Positions 30,956 through 49,735 of a stretch of DNA of 64,000 bases are shown one piece after another. A model generated the notes under the pieces. The model saw only the letters and a list, made by a program, of their open reading frames with translations, ran no database searches and was not told where the DNA came from. The stretch covers positions 9,593 through 73,592 of the forward strand of contig CAZBLH010000004.1 in assembly GCA_964492775.1 (NCBI GenBank), given 5' to 3'. The position numbers and the translations under genes were made by a program. The first letter of the stretch is position 1, and each line of letters opens with the position of its first letter. Source of the DNA: an uncultured Eubacteriales bacterium. GTDB taxonomy: Bacteria; Actinomycetota; Coriobacteriia; Anaerosomatales; PHET01.

Positions 30956-31031
30956 AGGGGTATGGTGTAACTGGCAACACGTCGGATTCTGGTTCCGAAG
31001 AGTCTAGGTTCGAGCCCTAGTACCCCTGCCA
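30956..31031 (+). tRNA. tRNA-Gln (anticodon CUG), CCA encoded
   Basis: Hand-folded cloverleaf: acceptor AGGGGUA/UACCCCU, D stem GUGU/ACAC, anticodon stem UCGGA/UCCGA with loop UUCUGGU, T arm CUAGG-UUCGAGC-CCUAG. Confidence 0.9.
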
Positions 31032-31036
31032 GGCGT

Positions 31037-31113
31037 GGCCCGTTCGTCTAGTGGACTAGGACACCGCCCTCTCAAGGCGGAGATCACGGGTTCGAATCCC
31101 GTACGGGCTACCA
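31037..31113 (+). tRNA. tRNA-Glu (anticodon CUC), CCA encoded
   Basis: Hand-folded cloverleaf: acceptor GGCCCGU/ACGGGCU, anticodon stem CCGCC/GGCGG with loop CUCUCAA, T arm ACGGG-UUCGAAU-CCCGU. Confidence 0.9.
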
Positions 31114-33037: not shown

Positions 33038-33393
33038 GGTGGAGTGGGCCAGACGGCCGCGCGTGCCTCAGGGTACGTGAGGAAAGTCGGGGCTCCGCAG
33101 GGCAGGGTGCCTGCTAACGGCAGGGCGCGGCGACGCGACGGAAAGTGCCACAGAAAAGAAGACTCCCCCTCTGCCGCGAGGCGGCGGGAGAAAAGCTGAA
33201 ACGGTGCGGTAAGAGCGCACCAGCGTCACGGCAACGTGGCGGCTTGGCAAACCCCACCCGGAGCAAGGGCGAATAGGAGCGGCTAAGACTGGCCCGGTCG
33301 ACGCTCGGGTACGCCCGCACGAGGCCGTCGGCGACGGCGGTCCCAGATAAATGGTCGTCCAAGACAGAACCCCGCTTATCGGCCCACTCCACC
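33038..33393 (+). ncRNA. rnpB: RNase P RNA, bacterial type A
   Basis: P1 GGUGGAGUGGGCC / GGCCCACUCCACC. Conserved GAGGAAAGUCGGGGCUCC, GGAAAGUGCCACAGAAA and ACAGAACCCCGCUUA blocks are in the correct order. Confidence 0.9.
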
Positions 33394-33421
33394 CGCCGCT
33401 CGGCTCATTGCCGGGCGCGCG

Positions 33422-37646: not shown

Positions 37647-38288
37647 TCAGCTGAGTGTCACAGACCTCGCGATCTCGAAGGTGAGCGCCGTCGGAGTCCC
37701 ATCCACCTTCAGCATGAGCACGCCGCCGATCTCGTCGCGGTCGATGACCTCGACACTCGCTCCCGGCTTGAGCCCCTTTCCGCCGAGGTATCCCAACACG
37801 TCCTCGACCTCGGCCACGCGAATCACGACGCCGGCCTCGCCTACGTCCAAGTCGGCGAGCGAGCGTCCGGTGGCGGCAACGGGAACGGTTCCGTCCGCCG
37901 AAGGGATCGGATGGCCATGCGGACACGAGACCGGGTTGTCCAGGTAGCTCTCGAGCGCGGCGAGTACGCGCGCTGACATCGCATGCTCGAGCAGGCAGGC
38001 GTCCTCGTGAGCGGCCTCCCAGTCAAGCCCGAGAACGTCGACCAGGAAGCGCTCGGCCACCCGGTGCCGGCGCACGATGCCGAGCGCTTGGATCGTGCCC
38101 TGCTCGGTCAGAACCACGTCTGTACCCTCTCGGTCAACCAGGCCGTGGGACTGCAGGCGTTTGAGGGTGGCCGTGACAGTGGGACCCGAGACGCCGATAT
38201 CCTCGGCGATCTGGGAGGGCTTCACGACTCCGTCCCGAGACAGCTTGTAGATGGTCTCGAGGTACTCTTCCAGTGTTGGTGAAGGCAT
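37647..38288 (-). CDS. DtxR/MntR-family metal-dependent transcriptional regulator with a FeoA/SH3-like C-terminal domain
   Basis: MPSPTLEEYLETIYKLSRDG...VSGPTVTATLKRL (wHTH), a metal-site region and a C-terminal LDVGEAGVVIRVAE; internal ATG of ORF 37647..38510. Confidence 0.88.
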   Translation of the reverse strand: MPSPTLEEYLETIYKLSRDGVVKPSQIAEDIGVSGPTVTATLKRLQSHGLVDREGTDVVLTEQGTIQALGIVRRHRVAERFLVDVLGLDWEAAHEDACLLEHAMSARVLAALESYLDNPVSCPHGHPIPSADGTVPVAATGRSLADLDVGEAGVVIRVAEVEDVLGYLGGKGLKPGASVEVIDRDEIGGVLMLKVDGTPTALTFEIARSVTLS

Positions 38289-38482
38289 CTTCCCGCCATC
38301 TCGCGACTTCGCTGGACACCATCGTAGGCCACCCGCGGCGGCATCGCCACCGTCACAGCGCCCGAGCAGTTGGCTGCCGATACCGGTCCGGGTATAGGTT
38401 ACCGTTCGTCGGACACAGACTGCCTTACATCGTTGTTGCCGTACCGTTTGGCTTCTTCTTGTGCAAATTGCCGTCAGACCCG

Positions 38483-38511
38483 TTGACGCGCATATGAGCC
38501 AGGGGTACATT
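38483..38511 (+). promoter_or_regulatory. sigma70-like promoter facing the orphan structured RNA
   Basis: TTGACG (38483-38488), exactly 17 nt, TACATT (38506-38511). The predicted start about 7 nt downstream coincides with the first base of the closing helix. Confidence 0.45.
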
Positions 38512-38517
38512 CAGTTT

Positions 38518-38693
38518 GTCCCCAGAAGTCGGACGCAGCGGTTTCGGAAAGACGGTGTACCGGTAGCTGCCCGAGAGGGATCCGAAGGAAAGCAGCGGCT
38601 GTGAGGTGGCTGCGGGAAGTCGGAGCCTCAGAGGTAAGAATCGTTGGGAAGCCGGTTCGAGTACGAAGACCCGCGGGCGAGGTTTCTGGGGAC
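38518..38693 (+). ncRNA. candidate structured RNA, unclassified
   Basis: GUCCCCAGAA (38518-38527) is perfectly complementary to UUCUGGGGAC (38684-38693). Internal stacked helices are GAGG/CCUC, UCCGA/UCGGA and GCAGC/GCUGC. There is no credible ORF in the 513-nt gap. The strand is inferred from the promoter. Confidence 0.45.
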
Positions 38694-38801
38694 ACTCATG
38701 TTCTCAGCACTTTCGCGCGCCGCCCCCGCCACTCCCTTGGATTCCGCGCGCAGCTCCTTAGACTCAAGCACCCTTGACGCTCGCAGCCGCTCAGGCGGTC
38801 C

Positions 38802-45697: not shown

Positions 45698-45966
45698 ACA
45701 TTTGTCAGAAATCGCTGGCACTCCCGAAACTGCGCCGACCCGGGCATCTGCGCTCATCGTTGGAGCGCGACCGTCTGTACTTCTCTAGATGCCGTTTGCC
45801 ATTCCTAGGTGCCGCTTGGCAAATCGAACGGTTGTCCGCTTGTGACGGACTCGAGGGCAGGGCTACTATGGGCACCCGCCCTCAGGGGCAGGCAATGTGA
45901 GGAAAGATCCATGGCCAATAGCCACAGGGTGGCGAAGCCCCGCTGGATCTGCCCGCATATAGCGTA

Positions 45967-46001
45967 GAGCCCCGGCTGCCGACAGACGGCGACCGGGGCT
46001 C
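45967..46001 (-). terminator. GC-rich hairpin after ribH (possible terminator, weak U-tract)
   Basis: GAGCCCCGG / CCGGGGCUC 9-bp stem with an inner GCCG/CGGC extension; about 35 nt downstream of the ribH stop. Confidence 0.5.
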
Positions 46002-46035
46002 CGCTTATTCTGGGATCGTGGAATCTTGCGCGCGG

Positions 46036-46503
46036 CTATCCGAGCGAGCGGGAGAGGTTCGCCATCTCGATCGCGGCGAGAGCCGCTTCCCAACCCTTGT
46101 TGCCCGCCTTGGTCCCGGCCCGCTCGACCGCCTGCTCGATGGTGTCGGCGGTGATTACACCGAAGATGACCGGAACCCCGCTGTCGAGGGTGACCTTGGC
46201 CACGCCCTTGCTGACCTCGGCAGACACGTACTCGAAGTGCGGCGTACCGCCGCGGATGACCACGCCGAGGGCTACGATCGCGTCGTAGCGTCCCGTTGCC
46301 GCCAACTTGCTCGCAACGAGCGGAATCTCGAAGGCACCCGGGACCCAGGCGACATCGATATCGCCCTCCTCGATCCCGTGGCGTACGAAACCGTCCTGCG
46401 CGCCCGAGAGCAGGCGTGTGGACAGAAGCTCGTTGAATCGGCTCACGACGCAGGCTACCTTCAGCCCGGTCCCTACCAGATGACCCTCGAATGTCGACAT
46501 CAT
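46036..46503 (-). CDS. ribH: 6,7-dimethyl-8-ribityllumazine synthase
   Basis: 155 aa; VPGAFEIP and GTPHFEYV motifs. Confidence 0.95.
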
Positions 46504-49611: not shown

Positions 49612-49735
49612 GCCCTTCCTTCTCCCGTCCGGACTCTGACCGTCGGCTCCGGAATCACACTGGATCGGCCCCTCGCGGGGTTCGCGGGCTGTAACCGCCG
49701 GTGGGGAGTTTCACCCCGCCCTGAAGAAAGCTTCC
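49612..49735 (-). promoter_or_regulatory. FMN (RFN) riboswitch
   Basis: Minus-strand UCUUCAGGGCGGGGUGAAACUCCCCACCGGCGGUUACAGCCCGCGA...GAUCCAGUGUGAUUCCGGAGCCGACGGUCAGAGUCCGGACGGGAGAAGGA. The 3' P1 strand overlaps the GGAG-type RBS of ribD. Confidence 0.88.

Follow-up and report, generated by a model that had tools for sequence, protein, structure and literature searches.

The gap between the dtxR and queD genes of the window (the whole stretch of DNA that was analysed, 64 kb in length) almost certainly contains a genuine, undescribed RNA gene. It is preceded by a promoter of its own on the plus strand, its product is predicted to fold into a single irregular rod, and covarying homologues of it, ~170 copies in total, were found in Coriobacteriia-like Actinomycetota metagenome-assembled genomes (MAGs) and in metagenomes. 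In our judgement, there is an even chance that the product acts in trans by binding protein, with RNA polymerase first among its likely partners. The coordinates of all the features discussed below are listed in Table 1.

Table 1. Features of the dtxR-queD gap and of the RNA gene that it contains, in window coordinates
Feature	Position	Strand	Details
Gap between dtxR and queD	DtxR-family start (38288, minus) to queD stop (38802, minus)		513 nt
Direct-repeat array	38400..38453	+	3 units, 21 bp apart; ~-118 to -65 from predicted start
Repeat 1	38400-411	+	TACCGTTCGTCG; PWM score 13.9
Repeat 2	38421-432	+	TGCCTTACATCG; PWM score 7.9
Repeat 3	38442-453	+	TACCGTTTGGCT; PWM score 11.4
Promoter, sigma-70/SigA-type	38483..38511	+	-35 TTGACG 38483-88; 17-nt spacer; -10 TACATT 38506-11
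Predicted transcription start	near 38517-38518	+	
Small RNA core	38518..38693	+	176 nt, single irregular rod; covariance model (CM) match 140.4 bits, E = 3.9e-33
P1, closing helix	38518-30 with 38681-93	+	13 bp; 13-14 bp across family
P2a	38538-40 with 38672-74	+	short helix
P2b	38542-46 with 38664-68	+	short helix
Internal loop	between P2b and P3	+	GAAAG opposite GAGUA
P3	38553-56 with 38651-54	+	4-5 bp across family
Central conserved loop, 5' strand	38557..38567	+	GUACCGGUAGC; family consensus GUACCAGUAGC
Invariant CC, 5' central strand	38560-61	+	
P4	38568-71 with 38633-36	+	UGCC/GGUA, covarying
P5	38575-78 with 38626-29	+	GAGG/CCUC
P6	38581-85 with 38620-24	+	UCCGA/UCGGA
P7	38592-96 with 38609-13	+	GCAGC/GCUGC
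P8	38598-600 with 38605-07	+	GUGA tetraloop 38601-04 on top
Central loop, 3' strand	38637..38650	+	AGAAUCGUUGGGAA; family consensus AGAAAYGGGAA
3' linker or tail	38694..38708	+	ACACUCAUGUUCUCA; family consensus ACACCUCUAUUCUC; C/U-rich
Second small structured RNA	~45874-46000		divergent from rrf2-iscS

An earlier interpretation made from the sequence alone (the sequence-only reading) had described the gap as free of credible open reading frames, and this was borne out. The list of open reading frames in the gap includes only short and overlapping ones, none of them credible, and the flanking genes were confirmed by Pfam. By its flanking DtxR protein, the window is assigned to an uncultured Coriobacteriia MAG lineage. 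As assessed by a covariance-model search, the 64-kb window contains one copy of the RNA family. The plus-strand promoter TTGACG-17-TACATT, also proposed at the outset, is the sole promoter-like site between positions 38000 and 39300, a region for which shuffled sequences give a mean of 0.1, and it is kept in the homologues. In these, TTGAC and TAnnnT are near-invariant and spaced by 17 or 18 nt, and the sequence of the spacer is variable. A copy from a low-GC lineage (L087, 40% GC) displays a perfect match, TTGACT-17-TGnTATAAT.

Upstream of this promoter lies a phased array of direct repeats. Alignment of 89 anchored homologues identified a CCGTTCG consensus at 21-bp spacing, 5' of the conserved -35, and the homologues typically display 3-5 such direct repeats, followed by an AT-rich stretch and then by the promoter. 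The array is also found in copies of the gene that are located downstream of dtxR and in those that adjoin gatB. In ~1.4 Mb of related loci, nearly all triple CCGTTCG arrays are upstream of the 176-nt RNA, and the only two others are found before the second small RNA in the window and in L114. The CCGTTCG repeats are probably transcription-factor sites, and the phased array is a putative new regulatory motif common to two small RNAs. Direct, phased, and placed 5' of the -35, the repeats are unlike the palindromic operators of DtxR/IdeR, and DtxR is therefore not an obvious binder. By analogy, their arrangement recalls activator or architectural sites.

The plus strand of the core has a predicted folding energy of -78 kcal/mol (z = -2.9), and the minus strand folds more weakly. 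The two ends of the core form a perfect inverted repeat of 11 nt (38517-27 with 38684-94), which starts ~7 nt past the promoter and is lengthened to 13 bp by G-U, U-G, and C-G pairs, as the sequence-only reading had anticipated for its closing helix. The three inner helices that it had listed, GAGG/CCUC, UCCGA/UCGGA, and GCAGC/GCUGC (P5, P6, and P7), are likewise all present in the minimum free energy (MFE) fold and conserved in homologues. Two further proposals did not stand. A symmetric purine loop, AGGAAA opposite GGGAAG, was not confirmed, the sequence of this region being variable between copies. The helix that was to swap partners with P7 (38535-39 with 38566-70) was found to be 68.1% paired versus 67.8% in shuffles, and the mutually exclusive GCAGC/GCUGC switch was rejected because the alternative helix is no better than shuffles.

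Members of the family are 167-212 nt long (median 176.5; 112 copies), and their apex, formed by P5-P8, is capped by a GNRA tetraloop. The central region between P3 and P4 consists, going inward, of a GUA/GAA loop, an invariant CC/GG that may be paired, and an AGUAGC/AGAAAY loop. Among the 112 copies, positions conserved in at least 97% cluster in P1, in GUACC-G-GC-GC on the 5' central strand (its GUACC, G, GC, and GC all reach this level), and in GAA-GG-AA. Large length variation is confined to the 3' strand of the central loop (columns 197-226 of alignment A2, described below), which is 3 nt longer in the group to which the window copy belongs. In one subfamily the same strand is extended by 26 nt, corresponding to two hairpins that are capped by GAAA and GCAA tetraloops; this subfamily comprises L004, L007-L009, L013, and L022, with L107 and L157 assigned by copy length. 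By eye, three internal loops, GAAAG/GAGUA, GUA/GAA, and AGUAGC/AGAAAY, all of them near-invariant and purine-rich, resemble AGUA/GAA loop-E or sarcin-ricin modules.

Conservation of these helices was assessed in three alignments. Two were produced with MAFFT, one including the promoter (A2, 53 sequences) and one restricted to the transcribed core (A3, 46 sequences). The latter was used to build a model (R1) of 176 positions and 53 pairs, to which 112 copies, 109 of them distinct, were aligned (A5). In A3, 88.7% of the cells are paired, and both partners have changed in 35 of 55 pairs. Its covariation score, 0.351, compares with 0.178 for shuffled columns and is reached by none of 500 shuffles, and control structures in which partners were slid by 1-3 columns score at most 0.11. 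Results were similar with A5, in which 90.1% of the cells are paired, both sides have changed in 38 of 53 pairs, and the score is 0.374 versus 0.177. Covariation of the helices in relatives, which the sequence-only reading had named as a check on its structure, was thus found in both alignments. P3, for example, exists as CAGC/GCUG, CGGU/GCCG, CGGA/UCCG, CGAC/GUCG, CUGU/GCAG, and UAGU/GCUA. P1 also covaries, with G-C, A-U, and C-G all occurring at one pair, and its G-U and U-G pairs are retained in 109/109 and 103/109 of the sequences, respectively. Because the minus strand would have C-A and A-C mismatches at these two pairs, the RNA corresponds to the plus strand of the window. Together with the conserved promoter, this bears out the placing of a structured RNA on that strand.

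The distribution of the gene was determined in two ways. A scan of genomes based on a DtxR alignment defined 80 species-level loci, and nhmmer and BLAST searches with positions 38460-38720 as query detected the element, promoter included, in ~50 of them. These ~50 carriers are all Coriobacteriia/Actinomycetota MAGs, with DtxR identities of at least ~48%. A pattern derived from two invariant stretches identified 120 further metagenome loci, and about 120 more copies were confirmed by covariance-model searches. Eight pattern hits with a shorter spacing (L086, L102, L110, L113, L124, L134, L148, and L149) were discarded as they had no CM match; the conserved stretch in which they lie is unlike the RNA and, by eye, appears to be protein-coding. 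No copies were found in viral contigs.

The usual gene block is nif3-COG1579-rnhA-queD, followed by the RNA on the opposite strand and by dtxR. The RNA adjoins dtxR in the great majority of loci, mostly divergent from it, and this is the case even when DtxR identity falls to ~48%. Exceptions are of several kinds. The orientation is flipped in L017, and a sole or second copy is located downstream of dtxR in L014, L017, L018, L028, L037, and ~14 metagenome loci. Tandem copies are present in L024, L128, and L176. Second copies were found in ~19 loci, some of them flanking dtxR, and one relative (L003) has no RNA at its dtxR site. In a high-GC lineage the RNA is near gatB, and in a low-GC actinobacterial lineage (L087, L203-L207) it is immediately upstream of rarA/mgsA, in both cases with no dtxR or queD nearby. 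The next relative by rarA (63% identity) has no copy of the RNA, and upstream of a more distant rarA (L208) no canonical 6S RNA was found. Across these contexts there is no common protein-coding neighbour, and across the homologues no gene downstream on the same strand is conserved. Considering that the gene changes its position, orientation, and copy number irrespective of its neighbours, we infer that it encodes a trans-acting RNA, rather than being a cis element, an antisense element, or a mobile repeat.

At the 3' end of the gene, a conserved unpaired linker sits between P1 and the terminator, its strong conservation being limited, in the downstream information profile, to ACAC and two U positions. 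Terminator-like hairpins follow in 52/112 copies, ~30-35 of which are strong and have a stem starting 5-20 nt after P1, and a canonical terminator is found in about a third of copies. In L087, P1 is followed by a U8 run. For the window copy, a site scan found no terminator-like site downstream, where the fold has a z of +0.66.

No terminator can be recognised between the window copy and queD, and the RNA converges on queD both in the window and in most relatives. Both observations would fit a cis-antisense function, in which read-through from the promoter at 38483 into queD-rnhA-COG1579-nif3 controls this operon. We consider such a function highly improbable. In many relatives strong terminators lie within 5-20 nt of P1, copies may be inverted or downstream of dtxR (L017, L018, L014, L028, and L037), other lineages have the RNA beside gatB or rarA, and conservation is found in the structured core, not in the overlap with queD. 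The antisense role on the queD operon that the sequence-only reading had suggested is thus not a conserved one, given the terminators in ~1/3 of copies, the flips, and the gatB and rarA sites that have no queD; read-through into queD is possible for the window copy. Scarcely any credence can be given to a cis-acting leader or riboswitch (cobalamin or metal) on either strand, or to a non-functional repeat or mobile element. The purine-rich strings of the core are loosely riboswitch-like, and its ends form the 11-nt inverted repeat. However, there is no Rfam riboswitch match, the RNA has its own promoter and no conserved gene follows it on the plus strand, and on the minus strand the invariant G-U and U-G pairs become mismatches. 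Nor is the element dispersed, as there is one copy in the 64-kb window and none in viral contigs, and copies are beside dtxR in the lineages that have dtxR there and at one fixed gatB or rarA site elsewhere. A MITE or other mobile repeat was rejected on account of the single window copy, the fixed sites, the covarying terminal helix, and the lack of viral-contig hits. The likeness to a cobalamin riboswitch that had been noticed in the sequence extends to short purine-rich strings (GGGAAG and GCUGCC) and was not upheld: there is no cobalamin match at E <= 10, a B12 box is lacking, the motifs come in a different order, and no same-strand gene downstream is regulated or conserved.

Searches for known families were similarly negative. 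With Rfam 15, the whole window gave no match for the RNA at gathering thresholds, and the gap gave no relevant match at E <= 10, with the 6S, cobalamin, and raiA models all silent. No relevant match, 6S and raiA included, was found in nine homologous loci at E <= 5, and the same was true of L087 at E <= 10 and of L203 at E <= 5, the 6S model included. Permissive searches gave only chance hits at the level of snoRNAs. In the reverse comparison, with filters off, our family model aligned end-to-end with Escherichia coli ssrS but at 3.6 bits, which is below a reverse-strand hit. Membership in RF00013 is thus unsupported, since the 6S model is silent and the 3.6 bits for ssrS are not significant. 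No account of this RNA turned up in a literature survey that covered 6S RNA and RNA motifs of Coriobacteriia. Of the options left by the sequence-only reading, that of a new RNA therefore holds, for the window copy as for its relatives.

The closest comparison is with 6S RNA (ssrS; RF00013), an open-promoter mimic that sequesters SigA/Sigma-70 RNA polymerase and that is characteristically syntenic with rarA in Bacillota and with ygfA in Proteobacteria. Like 6S RNA, the dtxR-queD RNA is ~176-180 nt long, has its own strong promoter, and is present in 1-2 copies per genome. Its duplicated copies recall 6S-1 and 6S-2. It is similarly an irregular rod, in which a central loop of ~11 x 11 nt separates a closing stem of ~41 nt per strand from an apical stem of ~70 nt. 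The CC in its 5' central strand could template the GG that is typical of product RNAs. Its 3' central strand has variable hairpin insertions (the +26-nt subfamily). In one lineage it directly adjoins rarA; its neighbours elsewhere are dtxR/queD or gatB. In canonical 6S RNA a hairpin is found opposite the 5' central bulge, and rarA is a hallmark neighbour of 6S RNA in Lactobacillales and Bacillus subtilis (PMC8414754). On the other hand, the central region of the dtxR-queD RNA is smaller and maybe partly paired (CC/GG and the covarying P4), its central sequence is almost invariant, and there is no detectable similarity to RF00013.

The dtxR-queD RNA also has parallels in mycobacterial Ms1 (~300 nt) and in CoRP. 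These two are abundant, structured, lineage-specific RNAs of Actinobacteria that homology searches had missed (PMC11077062, PMC9130861). The dtxR-queD RNA differs from both in being shorter and 6S-sized, in having no sequence relationship to them, and in its genomic contexts. In Actinobacteria, no 6S RNA has been found, and other RNA-polymerase-binding RNAs, namely Ms1 and CoRP, are found instead, with more being predicted (PMC11077062, PMC9130861). The Streptomyces homologue of Ms1 is ~230 nt long, and Corynebacterium CoRP is 516 nt (PMC11077062, PMC9130861). Another RNA of comparable character is the raiA motif, which is likewise a highly conserved, stand-alone structured RNA in overlapping taxa. 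Whereas raiA is more branched and contains pseudoknots, the dtxR-queD RNA is a simple rod, and it gave no Rfam raiA match at permissive thresholds. The raiA motif is a widespread orphan structured non-coding RNA of ~200 nt, found in Bacillota and in Actinomycetota including Coriobacteriia (PMC10861870). Finally, the RNA may be compared with small RNAs that are encoded divergently from their regulators (OxyS-OxyR, GcvB-GcvA, and SgrS-SgrR) and with the iron-sparing RNAs RyhB and MrsI. It is itself divergent from the gene for a metal-dependent regulator, and the intergenic region between the two contains regulatory repeats. Those RNAs are shorter, loosely structured, and conserved mainly in their seeds, whereas the dtxR-queD RNA is a long covarying rod, its repeats form a direct, phased array 5' of the -35, and there is no operator over the promoter.

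On these grounds we propose the following mechanism. A stand-alone gene would be transcribed from a strong promoter, helped or gated by a factor on the 21-bp-phased CCGTTCG repeats, into a ~176-nt trans-acting RNA of a previously undescribed family. Since its internal loops are invariant in sequence, the RNA is expected to bind a protein (or a ligand) and not to act by base-pairing, and the near-invariant loops could serve as protein docking surfaces. RNA polymerase would be the most likely partner, in a 6S-like manner. A short product RNA that starts with A/G-C-U-G-G could be templated by the invariant 5' central strand GUACCAGUA; its GG would occupy positions 4/5 and an adenine would adjoin the start, in agreement with known 6S RNAs. 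A 6S-like mechanism specifically, the best fit among those known, is put forward tentatively, by analogy, and the RNA may be the missing 6S-type regulator of this Coriobacteriia-like group. Several observations speak against it. The Rfam 6S model never matches, and the family model gives only 3.6 bits on ssrS. There is no large open bubble, as P4 covaries and CC/GG may pair. Near-invariant loops are unusual for 6S RNA, and a sequence-specific protein or a ligand would fit them equally well. Adjacency to rarA is restricted to a single lineage of close relatives, and both the tight linkage to dtxR and the sibling small RNA near rrf2-iscS point to metal homeostasis.

The last of these points would be explained if the RNA were a metal- or Fe-S-responsive regulatory RNA under a CCGTTCG-binding factor, possibly DtxR or a partner, and acted either by base-pairing through its C/U-rich linker ACACCUCUAUUCUC, which is anti-Shine-Dalgarno-like, or by titration of a metal protein. 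This explanation, which is the main rival but which we regard as rather unlikely, draws on the position of the RNA beside dtxR in the great majority of loci, with duplicates flanking dtxR, on the conserved unpaired linker between P1 and the terminator, and on the other CCGTTCG arrays, which precede a second RNA divergent from an operon for an Rrf2-family regulator and cysteine desulfurase. It sits less well with the RNA itself, since a covarying 150-nt rod with invariant loops is atypical for base-pairing small RNAs and the linker is strongly conserved only at ACAC and two U positions. No palindromic operator of the DtxR/IdeR type is found over the promoter, whose -35/-10 spacer is not conserved, and the lineages in which the RNA adjoins gatB or rarA have no dtxR nearby. 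The window contains no significant target matches, the linker of the window copy giving 8 in the 64 kb versus 3.75 expected, none of them convincing. There is also no excess complementarity between the two small RNAs, whose predicted duplex is no better than shuffles, 46/300 of which are as good. Judging from the shared arrays, both RNAs may nonetheless answer to one metal- or Fe-S-linked factor.

Two further alternatives leave RNA polymerase aside, and we consider each of them unlikely. The structured RNA could have a different partner or ligand, as a protein scaffold or decoy or as a ligand sensor acting in trans, apart from both RNA polymerase and metal control. The three near-invariant, purine-rich loops that are like AGUA/GAA modules, the GNRA apex, and the lack of Rfam similarity would all fit, and orphan RNAs such as raiA exist in the same classes (PMC10861870). 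This is, however, a residual hypothesis, with no neighbour common to all contexts that hints at a partner. In the other alternative, also doubtful, the RNA would not be a 6S analogue but the founding member of a new class of sequence-specific protein- or ligand-binding rods, forming with the second RNA one small regulon of a dedicated CCGTTCG factor. Such a regulon, beside dtxR and rrf2-iscS, would add an RNA layer to the metal homeostasis of Coriobacteriia-like Actinomycetota.

These bacteria are abundant in anoxic sediments and in the subsurface, and their RNA biology is barely known. The strong conservation and elaborate promoter of the RNA suggest that it probably has a core cellular function. 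If RNA polymerase is its partner, as in the mechanism we favour, the family offers a concrete, testable candidate for the RNA-polymerase-binding class that has been predicted in Actinobacteria (PMC11077062, PMC9130861). With a different partner, the family would count among the few structured RNAs that are widespread yet orphan. In either case, annotation of the RNA in MAGs can draw on the alignment and model.

Departures from the common architecture of the family RNA, the rod-shaped small RNA of the dtxR-queD gap, are seen among its homologous loci (L-numbers). In the copies of one subfamily, which are 205-212 nt long, the central loop harbors a 26-nt insertion in its 3' strand, consisting of two hairpins, one capped by a GAAA and the other by a GCAA tetraloop. 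A truncated variant in locus L119 is devoid of GGUAAGAAAYGGGAAG, the 3' central strand, as well as of the apical domain. Because its -35 element is degenerate, this variant may be a decaying copy.

In L003, a close relative in which DtxR is 73% identical, the queD-dtxR gap (618-693) is just 75 nt and no copy of the family RNA is present within 4.8 kb of locus sequence; the gene is either lost or relocated. In L208, a 274-nt gap (2227-2501) located 5' of a rarA that is less closely related (63% identity) matches neither the family model nor any Rfam family.

The dtxR 5' leader in the window (38304-38318, minus strand) contains UGUCCAGCGAAGUCG, which resembles the 5' strand of the closing helix P1, UGUCCCCAGAAGUCG. 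These two elements form inverted repeat I3, which is 80% complementary, and the minus strand at 38228-38309 matches the family model weakly (13.4 bits). This may be due to chance or may represent a remnant.

Upstream of the family RNA, some relatives (L146, L092, L106, and others) display up to five CCGTTCG units with a strict 21-bp (two-turn) spacing, and this array is absent from the low-GC lineage (L087, L203, and L205). A second orphan small RNA gene was observed on the plus strand of the window (45769-46000), flanked by ribH on one side and by a divergent Rrf2-family regulator and cysteine desulfurase operon on the other. A hairpin-rich transcript of ~90 nt is predicted 3' of its promoter-like site (fold z = -4.4). 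This gene has no match in Rfam and the 18-codon ORF of its locus is not conserved in L114; its core, AUAGCCACAGGGUGGCGA..CCCGCUGGA, is kept in L114, L182, L195, L200, and L159.

Coordinates of variant copies, repeats, and other RNA features (in the window unless a locus is named)
Feature	Position	Strand	Remarks
Truncated variant, 127 nt	L119 1485-1611	-	P1-P3 and GUACCAGUAGCUGCC retained
26-nt insertion subfamily	L004, L007, L008 (3081-3285), L009, L013, L022, L107, L157		L107 and L157 placed by copy length (207-208 nt)
Upstream repeat array	38400-38453		Upstream of family RNA
Three CCGTTCG-like repeats	45769, 45790, 45810	+	21/20-bp spacing; upstream of promoter-like site
Promoter-like TTGTGA-18-TACTAT	45840-45869	+	3' of the three repeats
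Strong terminator	45967-46002	+	3' end of ~90-nt transcript
RNase P RNA class A	33041-33394	+	Rfam, 274 bits
Two tRNAs	30956-31110	+	Rfam
FMN riboswitch	49613-49732	-	Rfam, 105 bits

The RNase P RNA, the two tRNAs, and the FMN riboswitch are ordinary annotations, the last sitting upstream of a ribD-ribH-type operon that ends at 46036.
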